Shown: one piece after another, positions 8,364-55,434 of the stretch | Layout: each line of letters opens with the position of its first letter | Position numbering within the stretch: the stretch's first letter is position 1 | Virus record (IMG/VR): IMGVR_UViG_3300020048_000015 | Coordinates: 1-64,000 of that record | Source of the DNA: a virus | Strand: one strand, 5' to 3' | DNA: 64,000 nt | Translations under genes and position numbers: made by a program | Notes under the pieces: model-generated | What the model saw: the letters and a program-made list of their open reading frames with translations, nothing else | Databases searched by the model: none | Told to the model about the DNA's origin: nothing

Positions 8364-8618
8364 ATGATAGAGATGAAAACTTTTAAAGATTTCGCATCAG
8401 ATACGGATGAGGGGAAACTGTTATTAGCAGCATTGGCTGTATTAACATCAATAGAACAAAAGGATATTCAGATGCGTAAGTGGGGTGGAATGGTGAATCC
8501 AGATGAAGCTTTTAAAAGAGTTGTTGAGTTGGCAAATAAAATCTTTTATGAAGAGGAGTGGATGGCTGAGGAAATTATAAGTAATAGGGATGATAAAATA
8601 TCAAAAATTATTGATTAG
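8364..8618 (+). CDS. Hypothetical protein with C-terminal tag
   Basis: Ends RDDKISKIID. Confidence 0.7.
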   Translation: MIEMKTFKDFASDTDEGKLLLAALAVLTSIEQKDIQMRKWGGMVNPDEAFKRVVELANKIFYEEEWMAEEIISNRDDKISKIID

Positions 8619-8623
8619 TAGAT

Positions 8624-9256
8624 ATGGTAGATAAGTATTTAGATAGATTAGTTATTCCTGAAGATTTCCTTAGTTATGGTTATTGTGCATTGAATGATGA
8701 TATGGGTGGTAGAATTATTGAAGATGTCATTGAGATATCTTTTAATAGTTTATATAAAGATTTATTGATATATTTTTATGATAATGGTGTATTGGATAGG
8801 TTTATTCCTGATAGTTTTAAAGTATCTGATGATATTATAAGTAAGTTGAGGGTATCAGTTGATAGGTTTTGGATTTATTCAATATGGGGTAGAGAGTTGC
8901 GAAATGTTGTGTATATCTTGTTTGATTTATTCAATCAATATATGAGGATGTATTATAAGGATGTATGTGATTATACATCTGATTGGCTTTATATTGATGT
9001 TGATATTATATTTATTAAAAAATGTGATATGGATATTAATAAGATGATGAATGATGTATCATTTTTAGGATATAATGTTGAATATAGACCATTTGTATAT
9101 TTTGAATCAAGGAAGAAGTATGTTGTGGTTGATAAGGATATGATAATAAAAGATAAGGGATTTGGTGATAAGTATAGTAAGAGTAGAGAAGATATAGTTA
9201 GTAATATTATTAGGTGTTGTATTAGGGAAAAGAAATTAGGAAAAATATTAGGATAA
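8624..9256 (+). CDS. Hypothetical protein with C-terminal tag
   Basis: Ends REKKLGKILG. Confidence 0.7.
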   Translation: MVDKYLDRLVIPEDFLSYGYCALNDDMGGRIIEDVIEISFNSLYKDLLIYFYDNGVLDRFIPDSFKVSDDIISKLRVSVDRFWIYSIWGRELRNVVYILFDLFNQYMRMYYKDVCDYTSDWLYIDVDIIFIKKCDMDINKMMNDVSFLGYNVEYRPFVYFESRKKYVVVDKDMIIKDKGFGDKYSKSREDIVSNIIRCCIREKKLGKILG

Positions 9257-9268
9257 GCAATTAAAAAT

Positions 9269-9613
9269 ATGGAAAAATACAAAAAAGGAACAAAGGTTAT
9301 CCTAAAAAATAACCGTGGATTTGAAAATCAAATGGATAGAAACAAATATAATAACATGGAAGTTACTATGGAATGGGTTCGTTTGAATGATGATGGAACA
9401 CTTGATATATTCTTCATTGAAGAAGATGATGGTCGTTATGAATGGTCATTAGATGATATTGTAATTAATATTAAAAGACAGGTAGAATATTTTCATTGTG
9501 AATTAGAAAGAATTAATGAGGGTTTACAAAATAGAAATATTGATGCAGATTCTGTAATTTCTATAACAGACAATGGAGTTTGGGTATCTGTTTGGTATAG
9601 GGTTAATGTATAG
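9269..9613 (+). CDS. Hypothetical protein followed by an out-of-frame C-terminal tag
   Basis: RRKKLGEILG* is encoded at 9612-9644 in another frame. Confidence 0.65.
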   Translation: MEKYKKGTKVILKNNRGFENQMDRNKYNNMEVTMEWVRLNDDGTLDIFFIEEDDGRYEWSLDDIVINIKRQVEYFHCELERINEGLQNRNIDADSVISITDNGVWVSVWYRVNV

Positions 9614-9640
9614 GAGAAAGAAATTAGGGGAAATATTAGG

Positions 9641-9667
9641 ATAAGCAAAATATTTTGCTTATCTTTG
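9641..9667 (+). promoter_or_regulatory. Hairpin ATAAGCAAAATATTTTGCTTAT overlapping a Bacteroidota-type -7 box TATCTTTG
   Basis: Palindrome at 9641-9662; TATCTTTG at 9660-9667, upstream of 9700. Confidence 0.55.
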
Positions 9668-9975: not shown

Positions 9976-9985
9976 AAAACTATAT

Positions 9986-14711: not shown

Positions 14712-15113
14712 ATGGAAAAGGTTAAACAAGAAATGAAATTTACAGTAAGTGATTTATTTATAGATTGTTATAAACTAATTAATGTCATTAACATAAATGA
14801 TAAAATTAGTTTATTGAGTAAAAGGGAATTATTATTGCTACTTATATTAGTAAGTGATACACATGACACAGAAAATAATATAGTATTTGATAATGTCAAA
14901 AATTATGAACTTGAACTAAAAACAGTATTGGAACTTTGGGATAGTAATAGTACAACTGACACCGATCTAATCTATCTTAGTGAAGTAACTGGTGATGCAT
15001 CAATTGATGTTTCAGTTCTTGTTGATAAAAATGATGGTATTCTACCAAAACCTTTAAGTGCAACAGAAGCACTTGTTTTAAGTAGAGAGATAAAAATTAA
15101 TGGTTTAATTTAA
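14712..15113 (+). CDS. Hypothetical protein with C-terminal tag
   Basis: Ends REIKINGLI. Confidence 0.7.
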   Translation: MEKVKQEMKFTVSDLFIDCYKLINVININDKISLLSKRELLLLLILVSDTHDTENNIVFDNVKNYELELKTVLELWDSNSTTDTDLIYLSEVTGDASIDVSVLVDKNDGILPKPLSATEALVLSREIKINGLI

Positions 15114-15127: not shown

Positions 15128-16291
15128 ATGGAAATGTTAGAAATGAATAAAGATAATTGTAAATCTAAAGGTAATTACAAACCAGTTGATAAATTGGTCG
15201 AATTTATTTATGCAAAAGGTAATATAAACTTTATTACCAATATTGGATATATTGATGCAGGACAATTAACCGGTTTGGGTTTAGATGGTGTTAAACTAAA
15301 ACTAACTATATTTGATGATGGCACAGCTAACTTTGATGAAGTAATTGAAAATGGTGTTGAAAAAACTACATTCGAACAAAGAAGTAGACTATTGGAAACA
15401 TTTTCTGAAAAAACTATATCAAGTTTCAGAAATAGAATGGTCATAAATGAATTAGATTTCATTTCTGATGAAATTGATGGTAAAACTATGCCATTATATC
15501 TTGCTGTTGATTATGTTAAACCAATTGATAAATTAGCAGGACTATTTGATGATGATTCTTTAGAAATAAATGATGAACAATCTAATAAAATTGATATGTT
15601 GTTGTCATTATTTGATGATGATGATGTTGAAGATGAAACATTGGAAAACATTGAAGTTGAAGATGAAAAAGTTATTGATGTTGAACAAGTAGTTGAATCT
15701 AAATCTTATCTTGAAGATCAGTTTATTAAAATGAAACAGGATAAGATTGATGAATTATCTAAGCAATTAGATAATAAAAATAAAGATGTAGCAAAGTTTC
15801 AGCTTGAACTAAAATCTTGTGAGAAAAAGATTAATGATGCTAATGATGATATTAAACTATTGGAAGATAGATTGGATTCACTAAAACCAGATGTTGAATT
15901 TAATGGTTATTACTTTTTTGTTTCCGAAAGAACCAATGAAAAAATTGAACTACCACAAGATATTTATGACCTAATCAATAATAAAGTTTCTAAAGTAAAA
16001 GGAATTAATTCCGATGCTTTTATGAAATTATTTGAAAATGGTGAATATGTAATTAAAATTGGTGTTGATGCTATTGAAGAATATAAAGACTATACAAATC
16101 TAAGTGATGAAGTTGCTAAATCTTTAAAATCAATTGGTATTAAGTTGGATGACAATGAAAATCTTGTATATATTGGTGATATGGTTTGGGGAGAAATTGT
16201 AAACAAAATGATTAAAAAAGGATTCAAACAAAATCCTGAATTTGATAAAAATTGCGGATCAAATTCTTATAAACTAAAAGGCGAACAATAA
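15128..16291 (+). CDS. Acidic coiled-coil hypothetical protein
   Basis: 387-aa ORF with a central heptad-rich segment. Confidence 0.75.
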   Translation: MEMLEMNKDNCKSKGNYKPVDKLVEFIYAKGNINFITNIGYIDAGQLTGLGLDGVKLKLTIFDDGTANFDEVIENGVEKTTFEQRSRLLETFSEKTISSFRNRMVINELDFISDEIDGKTMPLYLAVDYVKPIDKLAGLFDDDSLEINDEQSNKIDMLLSLFDDDDVEDETLENIEVEDEKVIDVEQVVESKSYLEDQFIKMKQDKIDELSKQLDNKNKDVAKFQLELKSCEKKINDANDDIKLLEDRLDSLKPDVEFNGYYFFVSERTNEKIELPQDIYDLINNKVSKVKGINSDAFMKLFENGEYVIKIGVDAIEEYKDYTNLSDEVAKSLKSIGIKLDDNENLVYIGDMVWGEIVNKMIKKGFKQNPEFDKNCGSNSYKLKGEQ

Positions 16292-16310: not shown

Positions 16311-17015
16311 ATGGAATTGGAACATTATAATGATTTTAAGAAATTTACTAATACAGAAGTAAAAGGTTTAACCCCATATATTCTTGAAGAAAGAGAAATG
16401 CGGGCTACACAAATGGATGTCTTCTCAAGACTTCTAAGAGATAGAATTATATGGGCTTCCGGTCCAGTAAATCAACATATGTCTGATATAATTCAAGCAC
16501 AGCTATTATATCTAGATTCAGTTGAAAAAAAGGACATAACACTTTATATCAATTCACCAGGTGGATCGGTGTTATGTGGTCTTGGAATAGTTGATGTAAT
16601 GAATTATATAAAATCTGATGTAGCAACTATCAATATTGGTATGTGTGCTTCAATGGGATCAGTATTGCTTTCATCAGGAACAAAAGGCAAAAGAGCATCT
16701 TTGGTGTTTTCTAAAGTAATGACACATATGGTATCAAGTCAATATGGTGGTAATATACAAGATACAACAATATCACATTTAGAATCACATAAATATAATT
16801 TTATGTTATTTAAAATGTTGGCTAAAAATTGTGGTAAAACATTCCAAGAAATGTTAGAATCATCAAGGAGAGATAAATGGTTTAATTCTAAAGAAGCACT
16901 TGATTTCGGATTGATTGATGAAGTTATTCTAACAGATAAAACAACACCGATTAATGATTTGATGATTGGATTTGAAGATTATTATAAGAGTGAAGTTATA
17001 AATACACCAATATAA
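16311..17015 (+). CDS. clpP: ATP-dependent Clp protease proteolytic subunit
   Basis: DVFSRLLRDRII, YINSPGGSV, GMCASMGS (catalytic Ser), VMTH. Confidence 0.95.
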   Translation: MELEHYNDFKKFTNTEVKGLTPYILEEREMRATQMDVFSRLLRDRIIWASGPVNQHMSDIIQAQLLYLDSVEKKDITLYINSPGGSVLCGLGIVDVMNYIKSDVATINIGMCASMGSVLLSSGTKGKRASLVFSKVMTHMVSSQYGGNIQDTTISHLESHKYNFMLFKMLAKNCGKTFQEMLESSRRDKWFNSKEALDFGLIDEVILTDKTTPINDLMIGFEDYYKSEVINTPI

Positions 17016-17069: not shown

Positions 17070-17597
17070 ATGGATGTAATTAATGAAATAGATTTATATG
17101 AAGGCACAAACTTCAAGTATAGTCATAAATATTGTCATTTTACAAGATTAAATGATTTATATAAAGTAGGATCAAAACAAAACCAAAATAGTATAGATGC
17201 TATTTTTTCAGATGCAGTATTGAACAATGAAAAAAATTGGTACTGCATTCATTCGACACATAAATTAAATTACCCAGATAATTTCTATGATTTTTATAAT
17301 AAAATTAATAATATTGATGCTATAAGTATTCACAATTATTATTGTGAATACTTAATAACTGATGATAAACTATTAGAAAAAATAAAAACAATTGATGGTA
17401 TATTCACTTTAAATTTATATGAAACAAATAGTAATTTTTATAATCTAAATAAAACAAAAGCAATTGTTTATAAAATAGATAATAACATATTAGTTTTGAA
17501 GATAAATGAGTTTTTAGAATATAATAAAAATCATATAAGTTATATTTCTCTAATTAGAGAACTTAAATTAAAAAAACTATTCCAAGATGGAGAATAA
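17070..17597 (+). CDS. Hypothetical protein with C-terminal tag
   Basis: Ends SLIRELKLKKLF. Confidence 0.7.
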   Translation: MDVINEIDLYEGTNFKYSHKYCHFTRLNDLYKVGSKQNQNSIDAIFSDAVLNNEKNWYCIHSTHKLNYPDNFYDFYNKINNIDAISIHNYYCEYLITDDKLLEKIKTIDGIFTLNLYETNSNFYNLNKTKAIVYKIDNNILVLKINEFLEYNKNHISYISLIRELKLKKLFQDGE

Positions 17598-19960: not shown

Positions 19961-20524
19961 ATGGATATCAAAAAAATCTGCAAAAATTATAATATTTTTA
20001 ATTATACAATAAATCCAGATGGATCTATTGACGTGTATGGTAATGTTAAATTAACACATAGTTTAGAAAAAATACCATTGAAATTCAATAAAGTTACAGG
20101 TGATTTTTATTGCTCTAATAATAACTTAACATCTTTGGATGGATGTCCTAACTATGTTGGTGGTGATTTTTTTTGTGCCAGAAATAGATTAACATCTTTG
20201 GATGGATGTCCTAACTATGTTGGTGGTGATTTTTTTTGTGATAGTAATAAACTATCAAACTTAGAAGGTTCTCCAAAAGAGGTTGGTGGTAATTTTTGGT
20301 GTCTATATAATCAATTAACCCGCTTAATAGGTTGTCCAAATTATGTAGGTGGTAATTTTTATTGTAATGATAATCAATTAACCAGCTTAATAGGTTGTCC
20401 AAATTATGTTGGTGGTCGTTTTTCTTGTCTTAATAATCCATTACCACAAGAAATATTAGATAATCCTAAAGCTGAAATAATACGTTTGATAAGAAATGAT
20501 AAGATAAATTATATCTTAGATTAA
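19961..20524 (+). CDS. LRR-like protein, type A (5 repeats)
   Basis: Same architecture; ends RNDKINYILD. Confidence 0.9.
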   Translation: MDIKKICKNYNIFNYTINPDGSIDVYGNVKLTHSLEKIPLKFNKVTGDFYCSNNNLTSLDGCPNYVGGDFFCARNRLTSLDGCPNYVGGDFFCDSNKLSNLEGSPKEVGGNFWCLYNQLTRLIGCPNYVGGNFYCNDNQLTSLIGCPNYVGGRFSCLNNPLPQEILDNPKAEIIRLIRNDKINYILD

Positions 20525-22403: not shown

Positions 22404-23132
22404 ATGGATACACCATTTTATTTATTTGGATCAGAAGATTCAACAGATTATGATATATTAGTATCAATTGATGATATACCACAAAACATAGATGCTGCAC
22501 ATAACATATGTAAGCATTATAACAAAACTTTATCAGAAATATTCACTGATAAGGTTTTAAATTGTAACTTAGCCACATTTAAAGATGGTGAGATAACAAA
22601 TGTATTCAAAGGAACATGCGATGAATTAAACAATGTTCTATTCTATACATATAAAAACCATAAGCAATATTATCCCAACCCAATCTTAAAACCTATTGAA
22701 AGGGATTTAAATGAAAAAGTTTTAAGGGCAGCAAGATTTATACTAACAATCTTTTCAAGAACTGAACTTAGACCTGAAATAAAACCAGCATTAAGAGGAA
22801 ATTTAATTGATAAATTAGCTGTTCTTAAAAAGATTGATTTTGTTAAAATGACTGATTTTCCAAACAAAAAAGAAAACAAAGTTGATCTATACAAATCATT
22901 GGCTTTTCAGTTTGGACAAGTGTTTTCATTGATTGATGGCTTTGAAATGGATTCTTATGCTAAATCCGGAATAATTAAAAACTATCCTGATTTGAAAAAC
23001 CATCTTAAAAGACACTTTCTATCTGATACAGATTTAAACACCCTAAACAAATACTTATCAAGATTTATTGAGTATATAGAAACAAACTTATCAAGCCTAA
23101 GATTAAACGAACAAACAGATAAAAATGAATAA
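22404..23132 (+). CDS. Nucleotidyltransferase-like protein
   Basis: FGS..STDYDILV (GS-DxD signature); TATATTTG at 22378-22385 upstream. Confidence 0.6.
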   Translation: MDTPFYLFGSEDSTDYDILVSIDDIPQNIDAAHNICKHYNKTLSEIFTDKVLNCNLATFKDGEITNVFKGTCDELNNVLFYTYKNHKQYYPNPILKPIERDLNEKVLRAARFILTIFSRTELRPEIKPALRGNLIDKLAVLKKIDFVKMTDFPNKKENKVDLYKSLAFQFGQVFSLIDGFEMDSYAKSGIIKNYPDLKNHLKRHFLSDTDLNTLNKYLSRFIEYIETNLSSLRLNEQTDKNE

Positions 23133-23856
23133 ACAAGAATTAATAGATGTCTATCAAGACACACTTAATAAGATTAAAAAAATACCAATTCCATACAGTA
23201 AAAAGTATAAGTTAGATACTAACTTAGAAATTATGAGTGGTGGAAAAAAAGCGAATGTATTAGTTGAACCAATTGATACAGTTTCTGCTATCATCAAATA
23301 TTCAAAAAGTGGTAAGGTTGCTGTTTTAAATATGGCATCTTCTAAAAGAAAAGGTGGTGGTGTAATTAATGGAAGTAGAGCGCAAGAAGAATCATTATTC
23401 AGATGTTCTAACTTAGTCCATATACCTGATAATTATTATCCATTAAATTACAATGATTATATTTTAACAGAAGATAGTCATTTCATAAAGGATTTTAATT
23501 ATAATGATATGACACCAATTAAATGTGATGTAATATCAGTTGCTGCAATAAACTTAAACAATAATCACATTGATATAAAAGAAAAATATAATATTGATTA
23601 TGATGACTTGATGACAACAAAAATATATAATATGTTAATTGCTTGTAAAAACTGCAATACTATTATATTAGGTGCTTGGGGATGTGGTGTTTTTAATAAT
23701 GATCCAAAAGTTGTTTCTAAACTGTTTAAACAAACAATTGAAAAGTATAACTTGGATAGTTTATATGATAACATAATATTTGCTGTTATAAACGACCACA
23801 ATTCAGTGGACAACAATTTTAAAATATTCAAAGATGAATTTACTAGAAGCATATAG
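23125..23856 (+). CDS. Microbial-type PARG (TIGR02452/DUF2263 macrodomain)
   Basis: VLNMAS..RKGGG...GSRAQEESLFRCS; ILGAWGCGVFNND. Confidence 0.9.
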   Translation: MNKQELIDVYQDTLNKIKKIPIPYSKKYKLDTNLEIMSGGKKANVLVEPIDTVSAIIKYSKSGKVAVLNMASSKRKGGGVINGSRAQEESLFRCSNLVHIPDNYYPLNYNDYILTEDSHFIKDFNYNDMTPIKCDVISVAAINLNNNHIDIKEKYNIDYDDLMTTKIYNMLIACKNCNTIILGAWGCGVFNNDPKVVSKLFKQTIEKYNLDSLYDNIIFAVINDHNSVDNNFKIFKDEFTRSI

Positions 23857-24331
23857 AAAACATATTAAAACAAAAGATTGTCCAAATAATACAGATGTAT
23901 CATTTTCTAAACATTATGAGAAATTTGATTACATCAAATCAAATATCACTGTTGGTAATCTTTTTCTATATGAAAAAGTAGCTTATAGAAATGACGCTTA
24001 TACTATATCATATCCAAGATTAGCTATTCACATAAATCATTTAATTTGTGACCAAGCATTGGAAATTGAATATTATAATATTAGAAGATTAAATGAAAAT
24101 AATATTTATGAAACAAGACAAATAGATAATGTTGATTATAAATATCCAATTGCTGATTTACAATCTATGATTGATTCAACCATATTATGGTATGATAATT
24201 TATTAATATATGGTGTTTGGGATCATAAACCTAATTATAAAGAATTGAAAATTGCTTATGAAAAAACCTGGTGGTATCACAGAAGCATTGAAGAACTAAG
24301 AGATTTAACAATCAATAGACTTTTAAAATGA
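23834..24331 (+). CDS. Hypothetical protein with C-terminal tag
   Basis: Ends SIEELRDLTINRLLK. Confidence 0.7.
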   Translation: MNLLEAYRKHIKTKDCPNNTDVSFSKHYEKFDYIKSNITVGNLFLYEKVAYRNDAYTISYPRLAIHINHLICDQALEIEYYNIRRLNENNIYETRQIDNVDYKYPIADLQSMIDSTILWYDNLLIYGVWDHKPNYKELKIAYEKTWWYHRSIEELRDLTINRLLK

Positions 24332-25425
24332 CATTTATGGATTATAATAAAATATTTAAAAATGCTTTTAATGCCCAGATAAATGGGGATTATAAAAAAT
24401 CAGAATTACTTTATAACAAATTATTGAAAAATGATCCACATAAAAACATAAAAGCCAACATATATTATAATTTAGGCTTACTTATGATGAATATGGGAAA
24501 TTATAAAAAAGCTGTAAGTTATTTTGATGATTCAAATAGATTGATACAAAATAAACAAAATGATTGGAATAAATCATTATCACTCCTAAACTTAGGAAAG
24601 TGGTATGAAGGTATGTCTTTATATAATAACAGATATGCTAATGATAATTCTGTTAATATTACTTCTGTTAGATTCCCAAAATTACCAATTGAATTTATTG
24701 AAGATGCTAATAAAGCTTTAGATAAAAACTTGCTCGTGTTGAATGAACAGGGATTTGGTGATCAATTATTATTTTCAATTGTGCTTGAAAAACTATCAAA
24801 GATAGTTAAAAGTGCTACTATTCAGGTGTCAGAAGATACATTTGACTTATTTAGTAATATCTACAATTTTGATAATATTAAATTTGTAATATTTGAATCA
24901 ATATCATTAGAAGATGTAAATAAACACGATATGTATATTGGATTAGGAACAGTATTTTCTTCTTTATATGAACTTAATACTTCATCATTCAATGAAAATT
25001 TTTATAAAACACCAAATAGCAAAAAAATAGGTGTTTGTTGGGCAGCCAATAAAAAATCACCAAGTGCATCAAAGAGATCAATTGATCCAAAAATATTAAA
25101 GCAAATTGATTATGAATTAGTATCACTCCAATATGGATGTGGCGAAGAAATTGGCGTTGAAAATTACACACCAAAAAACCTATACGAATCCTGGAAAAGA
25201 ATGGATGGTTTAGATGCAGTAATAACGGTTGATAGTGTTATGGCACATATATCCGGTTTAAAAGGAATTCCAACATTATTAGTGATTAATAATAATTTTA
25301 TGGACTGGAGATGGAAATATAGAGATGTAAATGAAACTAATTATAGTATGTTTTATCCTATGGTAGAAATTGTGGATTCAAAAGAAAATTTAAATGATAT
25401 TTTAAATGAACTTTTGGAAAACTAA
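24328..25425 (+). CDS. TPR-repeat glycosyltransferase (GT9-like)
   Basis: TPR N-terminus; EQGFGDQL, IGVCWA, VSLQYG, DAVITVDSVMAHISG. Confidence 0.85.
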   Translation: MTFMDYNKIFKNAFNAQINGDYKKSELLYNKLLKNDPHKNIKANIYYNLGLLMMNMGNYKKAVSYFDDSNRLIQNKQNDWNKSLSLLNLGKWYEGMSLYNNRYANDNSVNITSVRFPKLPIEFIEDANKALDKNLLVLNEQGFGDQLLFSIVLEKLSKIVKSATIQVSEDTFDLFSNIYNFDNIKFVIFESISLEDVNKHDMYIGLGTVFSSLYELNTSSFNENFYKTPNSKKIGVCWAANKKSPSASKRSIDPKILKQIDYELVSLQYGCGEEIGVENYTPKNLYESWKRMDGLDAVITVDSVMAHISGLKGIPTLLVINNNFMDWRWKYRDVNETNYSMFYPMVEIVDSKENLNDILNELLEN

Positions 25426-25481: not shown

Positions 25482-25862
25482 ATGGCATACATTTTAATCG
25501 CAATTTACATAATTGGAATATTCATTTCTTCATTGGTTAGAACATATTTAATTTCATATGCTAGACAAGCAAATTTTAGTGACATTTATACTAAATGGGG
25601 TAGATATCTTATGGATTTTGATTATTCATCAAATTTAATTTGGCCGTTAAATTTTTCTTGGTTTATCATATATAATATATTAAATATACCAAATATTATT
25701 CTTTCAAAGATGTTCAAAAATATTAAAAAAAGTGCCGCTGAAAAAGCAGAATTGTTAAATAAAGTTGTTGTTATGAAGTATCAATATGAATGTAGAGGCG
25801 AAGTTATATCAACAAACCAAGCAATAAGATTAATTAAATTAGAAGAAATTCAAAATAAATAA
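25482..25862 (+). CDS. Membrane protein with C-terminal tag-like end
   Basis: N-terminal TM; ends RLIKLEEIQ. Confidence 0.65.
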   Translation: MAYILIAIYIIGIFISSLVRTYLISYARQANFSDIYTKWGRYLMDFDYSSNLIWPLNFSWFIIYNILNIPNIILSKMFKNIKKSAAEKAELLNKVVVMKYQYECRGEVISTNQAIRLIKLEEIQNK

Positions 25863-25867: not shown

Positions 25868-26173
25868 ATGAGATCATACAAAGAATTAAAAAGTTTATCA
25901 GACTCACAACAAGCATTTATAGATCATGTTACTAACAACTATTCTGATTTAATATCAGAAATAGGAACAGATTTTGGCGATATAATTGTTATGTTAAATT
26001 GTAAATTGATAAATCATTCAATATATTCTAAATTAGAACCACTTATAGATAAACACAAACTAAGTTTTGGTCTATCATATTATAGTGGTGATAATAGATT
26101 AATGCTTAGACATTTTAAAATTGGACCTATTAATTTTTCATTTAGTGAATTATGGGGTGATAATGAATATTAA
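25868..26173 (+). CDS. Hypothetical protein
   Basis: ORF. Confidence 0.6.
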   Translation: MRSYKELKSLSDSQQAFIDHVTNNYSDLISEIGTDFGDIIVMLNCKLINHSIYSKLEPLIDKHKLSFGLSYYSGDNRLMLRHFKIGPINFSFSELWGDNEY

Positions 26174-26534
26174 TATGAAAACTAACACACACATAACGGA
26201 GATTGAAGACAACACAGTAAAGTTTACCATGCAGATGGCTTTGGAATCAGGGTGTAGATATAGTCATTGGCTCACATCCGAAATCCGCAGATCCCCAAGC
26301 GGAGAAATTTTAGAAATAACTAATATTAAGGGAGTAAATCTAAAAGTTGGAGAAGATTATATTATAGACAAAGGCTTTTCAACTTCTGGAACTGTTGTAT
26401 TAGTTAGGATATTAGGCAGGGTTTTTGGAATTGTTGGTAATGGAAGAGGTTATACTTGGGAAACATCGTTGTATAGACTAACACCAACAGTGGAAAATAA
26501 CAGAGAAAATCTAATAAGTAAATTATTGGACTAA
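26163..26534 (+). CDS. Hypothetical protein with C-terminal tag
   Basis: ORF 26121..26534; ends RENLISKLLD. Confidence 0.65.
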   Translation: MNINMKTNTHITEIEDNTVKFTMQMALESGCRYSHWLTSEIRRSPSGEILEITNIKGVNLKVGEDYIIDKGFSTSGTVVLVRILGRVFGIVGNGRGYTWETSLYRLTPTVENNRENLISKLLD

Positions 26535-28951: not shown

Positions 28952-29725
28952 ATGAAAACATTTAATCAAAATCCCAGTGCTTGGGTCGTGTCATCTATTG
29001 ACAAAGGAAGAAAATCTATTAAAAGTGGAAAAGTTTATTTAAAAGACAAAGAAGAATTTGAAATAGAATTATTCAATCCACTACAAGTATCTGTGCTAGC
29101 AGATATCAAATTAAACGGTTCATCCATATCTGAAAATGGATTGGTTATTAAACCAGGACAAAGAGTTTATTTAGATTGTTTTATCGAAGATAGAAAGAAA
29201 TTCATATTTAATACATATGAAGTTGAGAATTCAAATGAAGTAATTAATGCAATTGCACAAAACGGATTCTTAGAAGTAAATTTCTATAAAGAAGAAAGAA
29301 TTGTATTGAGAAAGAACTTTTCAAGAAGTAAAAATACTTTCTTTCCTAATCAATCAGGATTGGGGAATATGTATTCTTCCACTTCTTATAGTATTGATTC
29401 TTCTTACAGTAACTTAAAAGGATCTCTAACAACTACTAATTTATCAAATACAATTGAAACAGGAACAGTTGAAAAGGGTGGTAACTCAAACCAACAATTT
29501 ACATATGTTAATATGAATTTTGAAAAATATGTTGTTTCAACAACAATATTACAACTATTACCAGAAAGTAGAAAACCAATTGAAGCAAAAGATTTGAAGA
29601 AGTTCAAAGAAGAATCAATAAGTATAATTGATATGATTGCAAAATTAGGTGACTTATATTCAAATGGTTTATTAACAGATGAAGAATTTTCTAAAAAAAA
29701 GTCAGAACTATTATCTAAAATTTAA
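28952..29725 (+). CDS. Hypothetical protein with C-terminal SHOCT-like domain
   Basis: IAKLGDLYSNGLLTDEEFSKKKSELL. Confidence 0.75.
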   Translation: MKTFNQNPSAWVVSSIDKGRKSIKSGKVYLKDKEEFEIELFNPLQVSVLADIKLNGSSISENGLVIKPGQRVYLDCFIEDRKKFIFNTYEVENSNEVINAIAQNGFLEVNFYKEERIVLRKNFSRSKNTFFPNQSGLGNMYSSTSYSIDSSYSNLKGSLTTTNLSNTIETGTVEKGGNSNQQFTYVNMNFEKYVVSTTILQLLPESRKPIEAKDLKKFKEESISIIDMIAKLGDLYSNGLLTDEEFSKKKSELLSKI

Positions 29726-29818: not shown

Positions 29819-30241
29819 ATGATAAACAAAAATCAATTGGATAATATCATTAAATTTTCTTTTTTAATGATATTGAATGAAAAATTACCATTACCAAGTT
29901 ATATTATTGAAAAATGGGATTCATTTATTTCAGTCAATACAGACAAGTGTTTTTATGATGTCAAAAAACTAAAGAGTTGTTTTTATTTCTTCTTAGAAGT
30001 TGAGTTAAATGATAAAGCCAAATCAATTTTATCATTAATATATGATATCACTACATTATATAAAAATGTCCCTGATGATATTATTCTGGATGATATAATT
30101 GAAGTTTATAAAAAATACATTGATATAAATGAAGTTGCTGATTATGAAAATAGACATATACACACAGTAATAAATAATTATATTGATAAATTTATAAAAA
30201 GAAATATTAGGGAATATAATTTATTACTTTTGGATATTTAA
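29819..30241 (+). CDS. Hypothetical protein with tag-like C-terminus
   Basis: Ends IREYNLLLLDI. Confidence 0.65.
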   Translation: MINKNQLDNIIKFSFLMILNEKLPLPSYIIEKWDSFISVNTDKCFYDVKKLKSCFYFFLEVELNDKAKSILSLIYDITTLYKNVPDDIILDDIIEVYKKYIDINEVADYENRHIHTVINNYIDKFIKRNIREYNLLLLDI

Positions 30242-39445: not shown

Positions 39446-39478
39446 GAAGAATAGAATTTTTAAAAATTCTATTCTTCT
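39445..39478. terminator. 34-bp perfect palindrome at a gene end
   Basis: AGAAGAATAGAATTTTT/AAAAATTCTATTCTTCT. Confidence 0.65.
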
Positions 39479-39690
39479 AATAAATTTTCTATTTTATAAT
39501 CTCGCCAATCTTCTAATGACATAAAATTATATTTTGGAATTCCCATACAGCAATCACCAAAGTAAACCCAACAATAAAAGTAGTTATTATCATATAAGTT
39601 ATTAACATAGATTTCAACATCATATGTTTTGCCAACTATTATTGGATAATTTGCAGCATCTCTACAAATTAATTTAAGTTTTACTATCAT
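39469..39690 (-). CDS. Small C-tagged protein
   Basis: Ends SLEDWRDYKIENLLEE. Confidence 0.7.
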   Translation of the reverse strand: MIVKLKLICRDAANYPIIVGKTYDVEIYVNNLYDNNYFYCWVYFGDCCMGIPKYNFMSLEDWRDYKIENLLEE

Positions 39691-40251: not shown

Positions 40252-40446
40252 TTATTCTAAAATTTTTTTAATTCTATTTTCCCGATATTCTTCTATTGTT
40301 TCAAAATAAAATTCCATAATAGATTTTGATATTTTCGTTATATATGAATCTTCAAGATATACATTATAATTACCATTTGTATCTTCTACAAAAATATATT
40401 CACTTCCAATAAAAAATGGATTCTTTTTACCTATCATCCTCATCAA
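40252..40446 (-). CDS. Small C-tagged protein
   Basis: Ends TIEEYRENRIKKILE. Confidence 0.65.
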   Translation of the reverse strand: MMRMIGKKNPFFIGSEYIFVEDTNGNYNVYLEDSYITKISKSIMEFYFETIEEYRENRIKKILE

Positions 40447-40669
40447 ATAATCTATCTATTTTTTCATTTCTATAAGATTCTAAATCTACAAAGAATTTTT
40501 TATCAATACTATGTCCACCAATAATATAAATATTATTTATAATATGTTCAATATTATATACACCACCAATCTTATATTTTTTAAGTTGGAATATAAAATT
40601 TGGAATACATGTGGCAGGATAGATTTTTTTGCAATACTCTTCAATATCAACAACACAAACAACCATCAT
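40427..40669 (-). CDS. Small C-tagged protein
   Basis: Ends DLESYRNEKIDRLF. Confidence 0.65.
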   Translation of the reverse strand: MMVVCVVDIEEYCKKIYPATCIPNFIFQLKKYKIGGVYNIEHIINNIYIIGGHSIDKKFFVDLESYRNEKIDRLFDEDDR

Positions 40670-40970: not shown

Positions 40971-41240
40971 TTATATTCCTAATTTTGTTAATTGTAATTC
41001 TCTATGTTCTTCTAAATTAATTATTCTTTCCCAGAGACCGGAATGAACAAAATGCAGTGTCCCATCTTCTAAGTTAGTTATACTACCTGTTATACTACCT
41101 GTTTTAACACCAAACCCATCATTTAGACTATCAATTCTGTATCTATCCCCAGGTTTGAAATGATAATCATAAGAACCACCTTGTTTACCATATTTAGCTG
41201 TATAAGTAGATTTAAAATAAACTATATCTCCTATTTTCAT
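40971..41240 (-). CDS. Small C-tagged protein flanked by 26-bp direct repeats
   Basis: Start MKIGD; ends NLEEHRELQLTKLGI. Confidence 0.7.
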   Translation of the reverse strand: MKIGDIVYFKSTYTAKYGKQGGSYDYHFKPGDRYRIDSLNDGFGVKTGSITGSITNLEDGTLHFVHSGLWERIINLEEHRELQLTKLGI

Positions 41241-41548
41241 TCTATTTTGTTTATCTTTTGACATATGATTTCATTAATTTTAAAAGAATAATCTTGTAAT
41301 TTATTTATTTTATTAATTATTATATGTAATTTTTTTAAATTACAATCATCATTATATAGTTCAACAAAACTATCTCTTATTTTGTTCCATTTTTTAGAAT
41401 AATCTTTTTTATACCCATTATATAATTCAGAAAAATTTTCATTAAGCAATAATTCTAACTTAGATTCCCTATCCAAAACATCAAAATTTTCCATATTATT
41501 TATTAAAATATTTATATAATCAAAATATCCTTTTATATATTCATCCAC
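41237..41548 (-). CDS. Hypothetical protein with an internal tag-like motif
   Basis: RESKLELLL. Confidence 0.6.
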   Translation of the reverse strand: MDEYIKGYFDYINILINNMENFDVLDRESKLELLLNENFSELYNGYKKDYSKKWNKIRDSFVELYNDDCNLKKLHIIINKINKLQDYSFKINEIICQKINKIE

Positions 41549-41837: not shown

Positions 41838-41879
41838 TAAATTAAAAATGTCATAATATATTATGACATTTTTAATTTA
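41838..41879. terminator. 42-bp perfect palindrome between convergent genes
   Basis: TAAATTAAAAATGTCATAATA/TATTATGACATTTTTAATTTA. Confidence 0.75.
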
Positions 41880-42348
41880 ATAAAGAATCAATTTTAATGT
41901 TCCGAATAGTAGATTTGAATGATGAATTAGTATTCAAAAAACCATTTAAAATTATATTCTTTATAAAAAAACCATAATATAATAACTTTGTATCATATAT
42001 AGTATTATGTTCAATTTTTAGAAATAAATTTGGTTTTAATCTAATGATATAATAATCTTCATCAGTTTCTTTATAAAATACTTGTTCATACTCATACCCA
42101 ATATTATTAGGACTTGGTATAAATCCAATTTTTTTAAAAAAATCCACTACATATTCATATCTTGCATATTTATCAAACATCTTAGTTTCAGTATCATAAA
42201 GAAAAAACCTTGACTGAAATACATCAAACTCTTCAATTCCACCAATATAATATCCATCTTCATTAATAAAAATGAATTTTATATTATCTTCTAATATTGC
42301 TAAATTTTCACATTCATCAATTAATGTTTGTGGTATTTTTGATTCCAT
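41872..42348 (-). CDS. C-tagged hypothetical protein
   Basis: Ends IRNIKIDSLLN. Confidence 0.7.
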   Translation of the reverse strand: MESKIPQTLIDECENLAILEDNIKFIFINEDGYYIGGIEEFDVFQSRFFLYDTETKMFDKYARYEYVVDFFKKIGFIPSPNNIGYEYEQVFYKETDEDYYIIRLKPNLFLKIEHNTIYDTKLLYYGFFIKNIILNGFLNTNSSFKSTIRNIKIDSLLN

Positions 42349-48351: not shown

Positions 48352-48933
48352 TCAGCAATTTCATCATATCGGAAATATAGAAATAATGAAACACAAGGTG
48401 CTTTTGCATTAAGAGGAAAATTTATAAATGCATCAGAAGCAACTACACAGAAATTAATGGGAAACAATGAAGTTATTAATTTAATGGCAGCAATTGGATT
48501 AAAATTAGGACAGAAAGAATTATCAAATTTAAGATATGGTAAAATAATATTTTATTGTGATAGTGATCATGATGGTAGTTCAATTGTAGCACTCTTAATA
48601 AATTTTATGTATAAATATTGGCCTGAACTTTTTGATAAAGAAATGATTTTTAAAGCTGAAACACCAATTGTAGTGGTTAAAAATATTAAAAACAAAAAGA
48701 AAACATCATTCTATAAACAAGATGATTATAATAAATGGCTAGTTCAAATAAAACCAAAAGAATGGGAAATAGAATATAAAAAGGGATTGGCAGCATTACT
48801 TGATGATGAATATGCAGAGATAATAAATAATCCAATATTAACAAAAATAAAATCAGATGAAACATCTAAAACCCAACTAAATGTTTGGTTTGGAAAAGAA
48901 TCTGAATTGAGAAAAAATGAAATGTTGAAATGA
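48220..48933 (+). CDS. C-intein fused to topoisomerase B C-part (TOPRIM)
   Basis: After HN: SAISS...ALRGKFIN...YCDSDHDGSSI...YKKGLA. Confidence 0.93.
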   Translation: MVESFLELIEINDILLEDEYLNMVDISVNVEQSFLLSNGLISHNSAISSYRKYRNNETQGAFALRGKFINASEATTQKLMGNNEVINLMAAIGLKLGQKELSNLRYGKIIFYCDSDHDGSSIVALLINFMYKYWPELFDKEMIFKAETPIVVVKNIKNKKKTSFYKQDDYNKWLVQIKPKEWEIEYKKGLAALLDDEYAEIINNPILTKIKSDETSKTQLNVWFGKESELRKNEMLK

Positions 48934-49325
48934 CAAAACAATATCTATACAACCGATTATACGATACAGCTTTTATATACAATGACTATACATACAATTA
49001 TTTAGACAATAAAAAAATTCATATGCTTATAGATTCATATGGAAAGGGTGAACTAAATATAGATATTTACGAATTTAAAGATACAAATTTTGATTTTAAT
49101 AGTATAATTTTTATCATAATAAATCACGAAAATATACGAAAAATGCTTAGTGTTAAATTCAACAATTTTAAACAAACCTTTAATTTCAATCAAGTAAATG
49201 AACCATCAACCATATCATTGAATTTTTCTATAAATTCAATAGAAATTGAACAGGATTCAAATGATATAGACACAGAACTACCAATTATAATTAGAAACTT
49301 AAAATTGAATAATATTATAGATTAA
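48930..49325 (+). CDS. C-tagged hypothetical protein
   Basis: Ends IRNLKLNNIID. Confidence 0.7.
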   Translation: MTKQYLYNRLYDTAFIYNDYTYNYLDNKKIHMLIDSYGKGELNIDIYEFKDTNFDFNSIIFIIINHENIRKMLSVKFNNFKQTFNFNQVNEPSTISLNFSINSIEIEQDSNDIDTELPIIIRNLKLNNIID

Positions 49326-49327: not shown

Positions 49328-49357
49328 AGAATAAGCACCAAATTTGGTGCTTATTCT
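49328..49357. terminator. 30-bp perfect palindrome between convergent genes
   Basis: AGAATAAGCACCAAATTTGGTGCTTATTCT. Confidence 0.75.
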
Positions 49358-49878
49358 AATAACATATATAACTTTATTTCCCTTTCTAATGAAGAAATAT
49401 AATCTCTTATATATTCTTCTTTAACCAAGTAATAATCTTCATTATATGGCCAACTATGTCTTATTTTAAGGCATTCACTTTTAAAATGACTATATATACT
49501 TTTAAATAAAGTATGACAGTCATAATCATTCATAAAATTAATTAAATTTTTAATATAATCAAATTCAGAATTTATTATTAAATCAAACATATCCTTATCT
49601 TTTAAGATAGATAAATATTGATCAATTATTAAAGACAAATCTTCTTTACAAATCACACCAGTTATTTTCGGACTGCCAAAATAAAAATATATCTTATTCT
49701 TAAGAAGATATTTTAACAATTTAATCAAATTAGTTTTAGCCCTTAAATCTATTATAACCCAAACATCACCATCTATAATTTCCAATAATCTTATATTAAC
49801 CTTATTGAAATAATAAATCATATTGTTCGATATCTTCCAATTTGGATCTGTATTCGGCAGGAAAGTGTTTAAGTCCAT
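49351..49878 (-). CDS. C-tagged hypothetical protein
   Basis: Ends SLEREIKLYMLLE. Confidence 0.7.
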   Translation of the reverse strand: MDLNTFLPNTDPNWKISNNMIYYFNKVNIRLLEIIDGDVWVIIDLRAKTNLIKLLKYLLKNKIYFYFGSPKITGVICKEDLSLIIDQYLSILKDKDMFDLIINSEFDYIKNLINFMNDYDCHTLFKSIYSHFKSECLKIRHSWPYNEDYYLVKEEYIRDYISSLEREIKLYMLLE

Positions 49879-52113: not shown

Positions 52114-52681
52114 ATAATATTTGTTTAAGCATAAGATCACTAAAATCTTTAGGTTGGTATTTTTTAATATCATCTGACATCATTCTAAACACCATTTGCC
52201 CCATTTCTTCATTTCTACGAACACCTCTGCCATGTAAATTAACGAAATTATCAAAACCCATTTCAGTCATAGAATTTAAGGCGAAAATATTTGCTTCTTC
52301 TTCTAATTTTTTATAACCAATTATAAACTTATCAAAATCATTATTTACAACCGTATCATAATAATGTTCAGTTAGTCTACCTTCTCTATGTTGATCACAA
52401 TGTTTTGATTCGTGCAAAGCTAAGAATAATTTAAATATCCAAGGTGCTCCTTGTATTCTTGAATTTATTAAAACTCTATCAGTTCCAATAAAAACACCCA
52501 TTATTGGCTTTGTTGTATTAAATGGAAAATAGTTTAGTTTAATATCTTTTCTATTTATATTCCACCAATTTTCTATTGATTCTAATGGCTTACTTGTTTC
52601 TGCTATTTCCATTAGAAAGTTATTAATACTCATTTCCCCAGGAATGTTTTGATAATTTTCAAATAATTTTAAATGTTTCAT
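52112..52681 (-). CDS. N-tagged protein with a zincin-like HExxH motif
   Basis: MKHLKLFENY; ALHESKH...EEEAN. Confidence 0.65.
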   Translation of the reverse strand: MKHLKLFENYQNIPGEMSINNFLMEIAETSKPLESIENWWNINRKDIKLNYFPFNTTKPIMGVFIGTDRVLINSRIQGAPWIFKLFLALHESKHCDQHREGRLTEHYYDTVVNNDFDKFIIGYKKLEEEANIFALNSMTEMGFDNFVNLHGRGVRRNEEMGQMVFRMMSDDIKKYQPKDFSDLMLKQIL

Positions 52682-52701
52682 ATGTAAGTTTTTTTTTGTA
52701 A

Positions 52702-53871
52702 TTAATTACTAATTATTTTTATATGTGGATTTTCTAATATTATCTTTTTAAATATTGAATAATTAATAGCACATTGTATTCTTAATTGACCCTTACTATC
52801 TTTTTTAAATCTTAATTTAATTGGATAATCTTGTGTTATTAATGAAAATTCACTTCTATAATCTTCCCAACTTTTTTGTACATTACCAATAACTTTCAAC
52901 TTATAATTTAATAATTCATTATACATATTATTCAACATATCAAATGCTTCTGAACCTTCTGATAAATCAGGTAGATAAGATTTCCAAATATCTAAATCAA
53001 TATAAATAATATATTCTTCAATTACGTTTCCTATTCCATCATGAAATCCAATCGCAAGTATAAATCCTTTAACTTTATCATCATATATTCTTTGTAATGA
53101 ACCATCTATAAATTCCAAACCAGATATTCGTTTGAAATCACCCATGTCTATGGATCCACCTTTTCTAATACATTTTATATTCCAATATAAATCTCTTTTT
53201 AGTTTATTATCTACTAAACTAAAATCAACATCTAAACCATTTTCATTAATGACTGATATATATTCAGCTCCATTAAAATATTTAATATCAGCAGGAAATC
53301 TTTTATTTAAAAACCTTTTATCTAATGACCCATAAGCATCCCATTTATCAGGATTTGGCATACTATTAAGTTTATTTAATTTTATCAAATTTGATTCATA
53401 AACAAACCCATGATTTTGTCTTGCTCTTTGACTGTCATTAGAATTTCTAATAAATACAAAAAGATATATTTCCGAACCATTATCATTTAACTTTGAATCT
53501 TCAATTAAATAACCATTAAAATTATGTTTATTATTTTCTAATTCACCAATTTTTAATAATTCCGGTGCATCAAAATAATCTTTGTTTTTTATATCTTTAG
53601 ATGAAATTCTTATATCCCACCTTTTTTTATATTCAATTTGTTCTTCTTCAATATCATCTGATGCATTACTAAATGGTCTATTTTTAGTTGGTTCTAAGGT
53701 AACAAACATACAAAGTGCATATTCATCAAAATTATATGTTTCCATCCAATTTCTAATAATAGATTCATCATATATTGAACTTTCCAATAGACTTTTAATT
53801 CTAAATCTTCTTTGGAAAATATATAATTTTTTTTCTAAAATGAATTCAGAAAATTTATTAACTTTTAACAT
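52702..53871 (-). CDS. N-tagged protein, possible PD-(D/E)XK nuclease
   Basis: MLKVNKFSEFILE; QNHGFVYE...WDA...NIK. Confidence 0.55.
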   Translation of the reverse strand: MLKVNKFSEFILEKKLYIFQRRFRIKSLLESSIYDESIIRNWMETYNFDEYALCMFVTLEPTKNRPFSNASDDIEEEQIEYKKRWDIRISSKDIKNKDYFDAPELLKIGELENNKHNFNGYLIEDSKLNDNGSEIYLFVFIRNSNDSQRARQNHGFVYESNLIKLNKLNSMPNPDKWDAYGSLDKRFLNKRFPADIKYFNGAEYISVINENGLDVDFSLVDNKLKRDLYWNIKCIRKGGSIDMGDFKRISGLEFIDGSLQRIYDDKVKGFILAIGFHDGIGNVIEEYIIYIDLDIWKSYLPDLSEGSEAFDMLNNMYNELLNYKLKVIGNVQKSWEDYRSEFSLITQDYPIKLRFKKDSKGQLRIQCAINYSIFKKIILENPHIKIISN

Positions 53872-53975
53872 ATTCAACATTATTTTTTAAATATAAGTAT
53901 ATATAAAATCTATCAAATCTATTTTTTAAACATACATAATATATTATCATATAATTAGAAAATAATCTAAAAAAT

Positions 53976-54950
53976 ATGATAGTTGATCTTATTATAGATG
54001 GAAATTTTCTTTTAAATCGCTTAACATTTACACTACATAAAAATAATCTTTTATTTGGTGCTTTACACAAAAGTTTAGAAATGTCAATTGCTAATTACAG
54101 AAAATGGTATCCATTTGCTAATATTTATTTAGTTTCCGATTCTAAAGAAAAATCATGGAGAAAAAAATTAAACAATAATTACAAAGCACAAAGAAAAAAA
54201 GACAGTAACATTGATTGGGGATTTGTATTTAAAACATACAATGAATTTAAAGACCAAATAAAATCAAAAGGTGTTAGAGTATTAGAATCCCCATCAATAG
54301 AAGGCGATGATTGGATTTCATTCTTAGTTGAAAAATCAAATTCTGAAAAAAAATCCACATTCATTGTTAGTAATGATTATGATATAAAACAATTAATAAA
54401 TTATTCATTAGACCCACTTACAATAAATATAATGTCTAATGAAATGTATAATAAACAAAAGTTATTCTTACCAAAGAATTATCAATTATTCTTAAATTCA
54501 TTGAATAAATTAGATAATAATGATATTTTTAATCTAAATGATAACCACGAATTTATGTATCTTATGAAAACATTTACAGAAAAATATGAAGTAAATGAAA
54601 TTGATTCAATTGAATCTTTGTTTATAAAGCTTGTTGCAGGTGATTCATCAGATAATATACAATCTGCTTGGTCAGTAACTAAAAATGGCCGCAGAAGAGG
54701 AATAGCAGACAAAGGGGCTAAGAATATATTTGATGAATATGTTACAAGTTATGGTGATCCAAGTATAGAAGACCCAGACTTAACAGAAAACATTGCTGAT
54801 ATAATATGTGAAAAGAAAAAAGTACCTAAATCTTCTATTCCAGACATTCAGAAAAATTTAAAAGATAATATGAAACTTATATTATTGAAAACTTATAATA
54901 TGCCAATTGAAATAACACAAAAAATGATTGAGATATATGATTCAATTTGA
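53976..54950 (+). CDS. 5'-3' exonuclease / T4 RNase H-like flap nuclease
   Basis: IIDGNFLL, EGDDWI, SNDYDIKQL, GDSSDNI. Confidence 0.88.
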   Translation: MIVDLIIDGNFLLNRLTFTLHKNNLLFGALHKSLEMSIANYRKWYPFANIYLVSDSKEKSWRKKLNNNYKAQRKKDSNIDWGFVFKTYNEFKDQIKSKGVRVLESPSIEGDDWISFLVEKSNSEKKSTFIVSNDYDIKQLINYSLDPLTINIMSNEMYNKQKLFLPKNYQLFLNSLNKLDNNDIFNLNDNHEFMYLMKTFTEKYEVNEIDSIESLFIKLVAGDSSDNIQSAWSVTKNGRRRGIADKGAKNIFDEYVTSYGDPSIEDPDLTENIADIICEKKKVPKSSIPDIQKNLKDNMKLILLKTYNMPIEITQKMIEIYDSI

Positions 54951-55434
54951 TGATGATGAAAAAACGATAGAACTATATGGATATATTAAAAGAAATTTGA
55001 ATGGTTTTTACAATTATGATTTTATGGAAAAATTTAATTATAATATAACAGACGACTTCAAAAATGAAATATTTATTTATATTTATATAGTAGCAAAAAA
55101 TATAAATTATTCTCGTGGAATGGACCCAATAAAGTTTCTTCTTGAAAATAAGAATGTGAATTTTCTAAATTTTCTAAGAGAATTTGATTCAACTTTTAAA
55201 GAACATCTATTAATAAACAATAAAAGATCTAAAATTTTAGGAAAAGTATATAATTATACTACAAATAAAATTGAATATGAATTGGAAGATGGTAATTTTA
55301 TACCAGAAGATTTACAATTAAAAACAAAATTTAAAGTAGAATTCAATTGTAATGTATTTCCAAAAGAATATAGAAAGATTATTTATAAACAAGAAAATAG
55401 AGAAGAACAACTAAAAAATATCTTAGATGAGTAA
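54937..55434 (+). CDS. C-tagged hypothetical protein
   Basis: Ends REEQLKNILDE. Confidence 0.7.
   Translation: MIQFDDDEKTIELYGYIKRNLNGFYNYDFMEKFNYNITDDFKNEIFIYIYIVAKNINYSRGMDPIKFLLENKNVNFLNFLREFDSTFKEHLLINNKRSKILGKVYNYTTNKIEYELEDGNFIPEDLQLKTKFKVEFNCNVFPKEYRKIIYKQENREEQLKNILDE

Follow-up and report, generated by a model that had tools for sequence, protein, structure and literature searches.

Why should more than twenty genes of one huge phage end in the same short peptide? The question is raised by the first 64 kb (the window) of the 182.7-kb IMG/VR virus record IMGVR_UViG_3300020048_000015 (G000; other records are likewise cited by their labels), where an initial annotation had pointed to a helical motif of the form R-x-x-K-[I/L]-x-x-[I/L]-[L/I] at 22 C-termini. 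All 22 were found in the tails of open reading frames (ORFs), the positions attached to them being the low coordinates of the genes and not those of the motif, and we conclude that the motif is a real, strongly non-random and portable C-terminal helix tag. The record itself (25% GC, 84% complete by CheckV) comes from an AT-rich huge phage, kin of the published Mahaphages of Bacteroidetes, the clade to which Al-Shayeb et al. 2020 (PMC7162821) assign the genomes above 634 kb, with predicted Bacteroidetes hosts. Its DNA polymerase shares 63–64% identity with those of the ‘uncultured phage’ genomes LR745206.1 (635 kb) and LR756502.1 (642 kb) and 39% with that of Tenacibaculum phage PTm1, and one of its proteins occurs also on a 354-kb contig.

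We determined the enrichment of the tag across the 254 ORFs of the full record, with tails defined as the last 16 residues and a strict motif, R-[EDN]-x-K-[LI]-x-x-[LI]-[LIF]. This motif occurred 14 times in tails and twice at 52,422 internal positions, an enrichment of about 145-fold per position; when the last 30 residues of each protein were shuffled 300 times, tails held a mean of 0.02 matches and never more than 1. A looser motif matched 22 tails against 0.33 expected, giving 22–23 carriers, among which the genes at 25482 (RLIKLEEIQ) and 29819 (REYNLLLLDI) are weak members. Overall, about one in five genes of the window is tagged, as is about one in ten in LR756502.1. Tagged ORFs sit among small co-directional genes, in the company of replication and early-type genes and not of structural ones; the first 55 kb of the record contains them all except two, and the other 118 kb holds only two.

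The carriers have little else in common. Six are leucine-rich-repeat (LRR)-like paralogues; the 16 others show no mutual BLASTP similarity at E < 1e-3, so that the earlier description of otherwise unrelated families is borne out for these. In Pfam and PHROGs, no family covers the tag or matches the window carriers, and 74 carriers from other phages have no Pfam family in common. The earlier statement that no recognisable enzyme is tagged holds within the window, but a tagged HNH endonuclease occurs in another phage.

Sequence variation around the conserved positions indicates that selection acts on the peptide, as the initial annotation had argued from differing codons. Codon use at these positions follows genome-wide usage: the tag Arg is encoded by AGA (16), AGG (3), CGA (1), CGG (2) and CGT (1), eight different codons encode the Leu/Ile residues, and the x positions are unconstrained. 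Written as a DNA pattern, the tag gave 1–15 matches per tag-bearing record, and the reversed pattern gave 0 in 23 records and 1 in Lak-A2. Selection at the level of the peptide follows from this codon variety together with the reversed-pattern control.

We next consider the anatomy of the tag. From 138 tags of several genomes we obtained the consensus [K/I/L](−4)-S(−3)-x-[I/L](−1)-R(0)-[D/E/N]-x-K(+3)-[L/I](+4)-x-x-[I/L](+7)-[L/I/F/G](+8)-x-COOH. The prefix (S/T/D)LE(E/D)x proposed earlier is present in about six genes, but the pooled tags prefer K/I/L, S and I/L at positions −4, −3 and −1 instead. Position relative to the stop codon is tightly held, with 88% of 157 motif matches beginning 9–15 residues from the C-terminus, a peak at 10, and about half of all matches having the Arg exactly 10 residues from the end. 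The same is seen in LR756502.1, a genome chosen without recourse to any pattern (55 of 121 matches with the Arg exactly 10 from the end, 99 of 121 within 9–15 residues). Residue +9 is D in 26%, N in 17%, E in 17% and K in 12% of tags, and about 13% end in Gly-Ile/Leu; a Gly-hydrophobe end is a classic Schellman-type helix cap. By helical-wheel geometry, the Arg, the Lys and the hydrophobic residues at −4, −1, +4, +7 and +8 share one helix face. AlphaFold models of two carriers, one an LRR solenoid and the other an alpha/beta protein, both end in a confident 20-residue helix of which the tag forms the second half; a Foldseek search of PDB with the second model (49351–49878, 175 residues) gave no significant match.

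How widely is the tag distributed? Scanning IMG/VR with the pattern identified 103 stretches, many with 3–7 tagged ORFs inside a few kb, and the five records that were looked up are fragments of genomes estimated at about 210 to 730 kb. Tagged ORFs made up 24 of 244 in G004, 13 of 81 in G001, 9 of 75 in G002, 7 of 121 in G003, 16 of 363 in G005 and 99 of 978 in LR756502.1, and the tail-to-internal ratios of matches in these six records were 24/2, 13/1, 9/0, 7/3, 16/4 and 99/about 22, respectively. In LR756502.1, 42 of the 99 fall in two adjacent 20-kb bins across the record’s ends. By contrast, no ORF is tagged among 313 in PTm1 (30% GC) or among 391 in G007 (364 kb, 94% complete), the first 40 kb of Cellulophaga phage phi38:1 holds no tag, Lak-A2 gave no valid match to the DNA pattern, used there as a proxy, and the complete 289-kb G012 (27% GC) has 2 tagged ORFs of 336. 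G011 (249 kb) is intermediate, with 9–14 of 258. Because these related or comparable phages (PTm1, phi38:1, G012, G007, Lak-A2) are tag-free or tag-poor, the tag is a trait of one Mahaphage-related lineage, not of AT-rich phages in general.

No cultured phage was found with the tag, PTm1 being negative. A profile built from 14 tails matched one of 1.84 billion proteins, a repetitive eukaryote-like protein with internal matches; the motif is too short for hidden Markov model (HMM) searches at database scale. A word-indexed search with the 73-residue carrier matched only itself. The initial annotation knew of no functional description, and we likewise found none in full-text searches, in the Mahaphage paper (PMC7162821), where the term ‘C-terminal’ is absent, or in the jumbo-phage survey of Iyer et al. 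2021.

Comparison of homologues reveals how the tag evolves. Homologues at 25–40% identity usually retain a recognisable tag, and across 70 homologue pairs the tag Arg is retained in 69%, versus 32% for Arg in the protein bodies. In the 49351–49878 family, with homologues in G004, G002 and G012 at 25–32% identity, only eight alignment columns are invariant, Leu(−2) and Arg(0) among them. Conservation exceeds that of the bodies only for residue class at the key positions, not for plain tail identity. The tag is also gained and lost as a module: type A LRR paralogues are tagged and type B paralogues bear another cap, and the 387-residue family is untagged here (15128–16291), with 622- and 763-residue homologues that end in the tag. 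Strain variants from five metagenomes were identical in the tagged cluster and therefore gave no microdiversity signal.

Three ORFs may be noted in this connection. The 387-residue protein has an acidic linker and a coiled coil, belongs to no Pfam family and lies beside tagged genes in G000, G004 and LR756502.1. A 480-residue LRR-family protein (G000 170036–171478, minus strand) ends in NNPKAELKRLNI, a type A cap that breaks off where the tag would begin, as though a stop codon had cut the tag away. The ORF at 41237–41548 (minus strand) carries an internal motif copy (DRESKLELLLNE) near its N-terminus, perhaps the remnant of a tagged gene upstream that became joined to this ORF when its stop codon was lost.

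Table 1. Tagged genes of the window and candidate reader genes of the record (aa, amino acids; pLDDT, AlphaFold model confidence; coordinates are window positions unless G000 is given)
Feature	Coordinates	Strand	C-terminal end	Remarks
LRR-like type A paralogue	3423..3881	+	REKKLNILLNED	
LRR-like type A paralogue	3871..4320	+	REAKLNTLLNSF	
LRR-like type A paralogue	4389..5030	+	RESKLNLLLNEYL	
LRR-like type A paralogue	5017..5469	+	RENKLNILLDEY	pLDDT 92.8, terminal helix 130-149
LRR-like type A paralogue	5459..5842	+	RESKLNILLDEY	
84-aa orphan	8364..8618	+	RDDKISKIID	no Pfam/PHROG family
210-aa orphan	8624..9256	+	REKKLGKILG	Mahaphage orthologue (41% identity) ends RNRKLDDILC
133-aa protein	14712..15113	+	REIKINGLI	conserved neighbour of the 387-aa protein 15128-16291
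Phage ClpP	16311..17015	+		PF00574, E 1.4e-53; between tagged genes; candidate reader component
175-aa orphan	17070..17597	+	RELKLKKLFQDGE	directly 3' of the ClpP gene
LRR-like type A paralogue	19961..20524	+	RNDKINYILD	
165-aa protein	23834..24331	+	RDLTINRLLK	Mahaphage orthologue (40% identity) ends RDMQINRLLR
126-aa ORF	25482..25862	+	RLIKLEEIQNK	weak, doubtful member
123-aa orphan	26163..26534 (first ATG)	+	RENLISKLLD	137 aa from TTG start at 26121
140-aa ORF	29819..30241	+	REYNLLLLDI	variant, weak member
73-aa orphan	39469..39690	-	RDYKIENLLEE	identical protein on 12 metagenome contigs
63-aa orphan	40252..40443	-	RENRIKKILE	
80-aa orphan	40427..40669	-	RNEKIDRLFDEDDR	
97-aa protein	40971..41264	-	RELQLTKLGI	Gly-Ile variant end
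158-aa protein	41872..42348	-	RNIKIDSLLN	Mahaphage orthologue ends RDIKIESIL
131-aa orphan	48930..49325	+	RNLKLNNIID	
175-aa protein	49351..49878	-	REIKLYMLLE	pLDDT 90.4, alpha/beta fold, terminal helix 155-174
165-aa orphan	54937..55434	+	REEQLKNILDE	
Phage Hsp70/DnaK, N-terminal part	63092..63667	+		remainder at G000 63983-65248; rival candidate reader
ClpC-type unfoldase, 700 aa	G000 137112-139214			outside window
Second ClpP	G000 155678-156346			outside window

What could such a tag be for? We judge the chances about even that it is a handle on many accessory proteins that is read by one shared partner, and our best guess for that partner is Clp-type AAA+ machinery, although for ClpC specifically we put the probability rather low. 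On this reading, huge phages of a Mahaphage-related lineage attach a portable helix that serves for recognition, some 14 residues long (h-x-x-h-R-[D/E/N]-x-K-[L/I]-x-x-[I/L]-[L/I/F/G]-x-COOH) and ending at the free carboxyl end or one residue before it, to some 10–20% of their small, fast-evolving, non-structural proteins. The reader would be the phage’s own N-domain-less ClpC acting with ClpP, or a host equivalent, and the tag would serve its carriers as a common degron or docking handle, setting the time at which early proteins are removed or remodelled. A more specific version, which we advance with considerable reserve, is a phage-private proteolysis in which this ClpC recognises the tag and feeds about 10% of the proteome, comprising early host-takeover and anti-defence proteins, to the phage ClpP; having lost the adaptor- and phospho-arginine-binding domain of cellular ClpC, it would recognise a C-terminal helix instead.

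The proteostasis genes of the phage provide the grounds for this proposal. ClpP and DnaK had been suggested earlier as hints to the hub that reads the tag; both are encoded in the window, but neither alone tracks the tag. ClpP was rejected as a predictor because G012 has three ClpP genes and only 2 tags in 336 ORFs, and Hsp70 because G007 encodes it and has none in 391 (G007 also holds a ClpP-like gene with an in-frame TAG). Outside the window, G000 encodes a 700-residue protein with the domains AAA, AAA_lid_9, UVR, AAA_2 and ClpB_D2-small and without Clp_N. Its best PDB match is ClpC (3j3s, E 1e-209), and it aligns end to end with residues 148–795 of B. subtilis ClpC, with a UVR M-domain and, at the place of the ClpP-docking loop (the P-loop of ClpC), a VGF tripeptide. 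About 35 residues with a run of Asp stand in place of the Clp_N domain, and this acidic N-terminal stretch is conserved (consensus ...IKMALxDDDDDxDxF...). The phage is therefore predicted to encode a ClpP-competent ClpC-type unfoldase, together with two ClpP genes. Among 8,000 scored matches to this protein, the 120 best are 693–729 residues long, 68–75% identical and all metagenomic; the only GenBank phages with this type are LR756502.1 and LR745206.1.

We then compared the occurrence of this ClpC type with that of the tag. It is present in the tag-rich G000, G004, G003, G008, G009, G022 and LR756502.1 and was not found in the tag-free or tag-poor G007, G012, PTm1 and Lak-A2. Restricting the comparison to complete or at least 90% complete records, it occurs in 3 of 3 tag-rich genomes and in 0 of 10 others. 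These ten comprise G007, G012, PTm1, Lak-A2 (by the DNA-pattern proxy) and phi38:1 (by its first 40 kb), with few or no tags; G006, G010, G015 and G016, each with a single tag-pattern match, the one that selected it; and G011. With the exception of G011, the ClpC type appears, on gene content, to track the tag better than ClpP or Hsp70 alone.

Several observations weigh against a shared reader and against ClpC in that role. G011 (CheckV 90%) has its 9–14 tags and no ClpC-type gene or Hsp70 that we could find, and no ClpC type was found in G005 (47% complete, 16 tags). The ClpC-positive genomes are close relatives within one clade (ClpC 56–69% identical), and the co-occurrence may therefore reflect only shared ancestry; it is a lead, not proof. 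Tags end mostly in D, E, N or K, unlike the non-polar LAA-type end of known Clp degrons. Identity between homologues is no higher in the last 11 residues (37%) than in the bodies (43%), and about 30% of homologue pairs have no aligned Arg, so that the constraint is moderate. Finally, the fixed distance to the stop codon could in part be inherited with the module instead of being selected.

Other candidate readers were tried and rejected. The sliding clamp was discarded on account of the DNA polymerase tail (G000 139888–141813), which ends in MDIFGGNGF, like a T4-type clamp motif and unlike the tag. The tetratricopeptide-repeat (TPR) protein at 24328–25425 has no homologue in five tag-bearing records, all of them incomplete. 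A 330-residue family (61984–62976) occurs in the tag-free phi38:1; this family, to which we assign no function, occupies 7–15 places per Mahaphage genome, has 7 copies in G005 and is single-copy in Cellulophaga podoviruses (phi38:1, Calle_1). As for a MoxR/vWA pair, no AAA_3 match rose above the cut-off in G000, G004, G005, G008, G009, G011, G022 or LR756502.1, the weak matches in G008 and G022 falling within the D2 domain of ClpC.

A different possibility, to which we attach a rather low probability, is self-association: the helix would pair or bundle tagged proteins with themselves or each other, as proposed for the SHOCT domain, and so confer multivalency on small binders, the LRR proteins for example, or collect them in one assembly. 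The amphipathic helix with its single conserved face and the long terminal helix of the AlphaFold models are both compatible with this, and a true SHOCT tail on another protein of the window indicates that this phage makes use of short oligomerisation modules at C-termini. If two tags paired in antiparallel fashion, Arg(0) could contact the C-terminal carboxylate of the partner or the acidic residue at +9, which would account for the fixed 10-residue length. Nevertheless, the SHOCT HMM matches no tagged protein, an Arg and a Lys in the middle of the hydrophobic face would be unusual in a bundle core, and cross-pairing among the 20–100 different tagged proteins of one cell would be indiscriminate.

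It is improbable, in our estimate, that the tag marks clients of a phage Hsp70 system, with DnaK and J-domain proteins brought to poorly folding orphans. Hsp70 is encoded in G000, G004, G003, G008, G009, G013, G022 and LR756502.1, a full-length DnaJ and a short J-protein are encoded in G004, G005 and LR756502.1, and G000 has an HPD-containing J-like protein. The Lys/Arg-flanked Leu/Ile core of the tag is also loosely similar to the DnaK-binding peptides that Rudiger et al. reportedly described in 1997. However, the tag and Hsp70 part company in both directions, in the untagged G007, which has Hsp70, and the tagged G011, where none was found, and since Hsp70 binds extended peptides anywhere, the helix, the fixed C-terminal distance and the acidic end would be left unexplained.

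We also think it unlikely that the tag has no common function and is a helix C-cap, inherited in expanded families or reached by convergence in an AT-rich proteome rich in Lys, Ile, Leu, Asn and Asp. The Gly-hydrophobe ends of 13% of tags would fit a cap, some carriers are paralogues, and the 49351–49878 family keeps its tag even in tag-poor G012. Yet composition-matched shuffles yielded 0.02 matches where 14 were observed, the equally AT-rich PTm1 and G012 have 0 of 313 and 2 of 336, capping requires neither an invariant Arg nor a Lys three residues on, and the carrier bodies have different predicted folds.

Loading into the virion is likewise unlikely. The tag would bring its carriers into the prohead, to be injected along with the DNA, and would be the equivalent, at the C-terminus, of the T4 capsid-targeting sequence (CTS); huge phages do package many proteins, and the carriers are small accessory proteins of a kind that would be useful at once on entry. 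Against it, a T4-CTS-like N-terminal leader, MK[YH]LKLFENF, is already present on 30 other ORFs of G000 and never together with the C-terminal tag, tagged genes group with replication and early-type genes, and no conserved cleavage site precedes the tag. A DNA-level signal at gene 3′ ends (a promoter, terminator or recombination site translated by chance) is disfavoured to the point of being negligible, for although the arrays are tightly packed and the next gene follows directly on the tag, the motif invariably falls in frame at the end of an ORF, its Arg draws on five codons from both codon families, and the Leu/Ile codons, free x positions and reversed-pattern control described above speak for the peptide.

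The surroundings of the tagged genes offer some further observations. Between 23125 and 25425, three genes overlap at their ends and encode a microbial PARG-like macro-domain (23125–23856), the tagged 165-residue protein and the TPR protein. With respect to the late-promoter sequence TATAAATA, tagged genes are no different from other genes. The leader MK[YH]LKLFENF, or a close variant, opens its 30 ORFs at window positions 30252–60736 and G000 positions 65284–181721; a TAATATA or ATATATA lies at most 60 nt upstream in 15–17 of the 30, versus about 25% of other genes, and these ORFs are possibly a separate promoter class. The Hsp70/DnaK gene is divided between two ORFs, broken at HMM positions 195/199 and separated by 315 nt; G004 and LR756502.1 have it as one ORF of 628–633 residues, and Rfam gave no match anywhere in the window, including intron families in the window part of the gap. 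A conserved protein of about 220 residues (G000 181073–181717, G004 171670–172335, LR756502.1 541712–542383) has, in the C-terminal half, a segment (LYRxIVKxTHPDK) that resembles a degenerate J-domain, and the related genomes that encode it also hold a canonical DnaJ and a short zinc-finger J-protein.

Small orphan genes that resist annotation make up the bulk of a huge phage, and one peptide carried by a tenth of the proteome brings about 100 of them per genome together as a functional class. If the phage ClpC–ClpP reads the tag, this would be the first degron system of a virus to be both genetically encoded and proteome-wide, and a private circuit of this kind would act as an inbuilt timer of early proteins in huge phages whose infection cycle is long; if the reader is something else, the tag can still serve as bait for a hub central to infection by huge phages. 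The motif also occurs in the published genome LR756502.1, where the claim is open to checking by anyone, and a 15-residue peptide that can be added or removed and used in pull-downs is a direct experimental handle.

We compared the tag with known systems in which a short terminal peptide serves many proteins. Like PTS1, the peroxisomal signal SKL-COOH read by the TPR domain of PEX5, it would be a C-terminal address on many unrelated proteins with one receptor, for which the distance to the free carboxylate matters; PTS1, however, is a eukaryotic signal of three residues that is bound in an extended conformation, and for a receptor of this kind or of the EEVD type the window offers only the one TPR protein that lacks a homologue in the five incomplete tag-bearing records. 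Sliding-clamp-binding tails (T4 gp43/gp33/gp55, PIP boxes) share the extreme C-terminal position and the h-x-x-h-h spacing, and they dock several proteins on one hub, as the tag may do. Unlike them, the tag has no aromatic pair and sits on orphans, not on replication or transcription proteins; acidic-aromatic tails of that kind (DDFFSDFS, DDDFFDF) lie on different proteins. The T4 CTS of IPI–III and Alt is likewise a peptide of about 10 residues on otherwise unrelated phage proteins, read by one phage structure. It differs in being N-terminal and cleaved after L/I-x-E, and the CTS-like leader of G000 is separate from the C-terminal tag, on other proteins and mutually exclusive with it.

The SHOCT domain (PF09851) resembles the tag: a short module restricted almost entirely to C-termini, it is shared by many unrelated proteins and has a helix that closes with K-x-x-L-L. 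The tag has about half its length, is confined to one phage lineage and differs in register, the LL following the K at +3/+4 in the SHOCT consensus and at +4/+5 in the tag. The SHOCT HMM gave no match at E < 0.1 in 20 window proteins, nor at E < 0.01 in 74 carriers of other phages; the same HMM library detects a genuine SHOCT domain (E 1.7e-7) at the end of the 257-residue protein at 28952–29725, in the same gene array.

Among the systems considered are also the Clp degrons and docking tails, namely ssrA, the MuA-type C-motif 2 and the C-terminal ClpX-binding peptide of SspB. Unlike ssrA, the tag is encoded on 10–20% of genes and not added by transfer-messenger RNA. It departs from Clp degrons in its helical form, in its invariant Arg-x-x-Lys and in its end, as a rule an acidic or polar residue and not LAA; a hydrophobic end is limited to the LGI subset (about 13%). 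Like them, it is short, portable between unrelated proteins and placed at the extreme C-terminus, both in the pooled genomes and in LR756502.1. Known Clp degrons are read by an AAA+ unfoldase, and the phage that bears the tag encodes ClpP and a ClpC predicted to dock on it.

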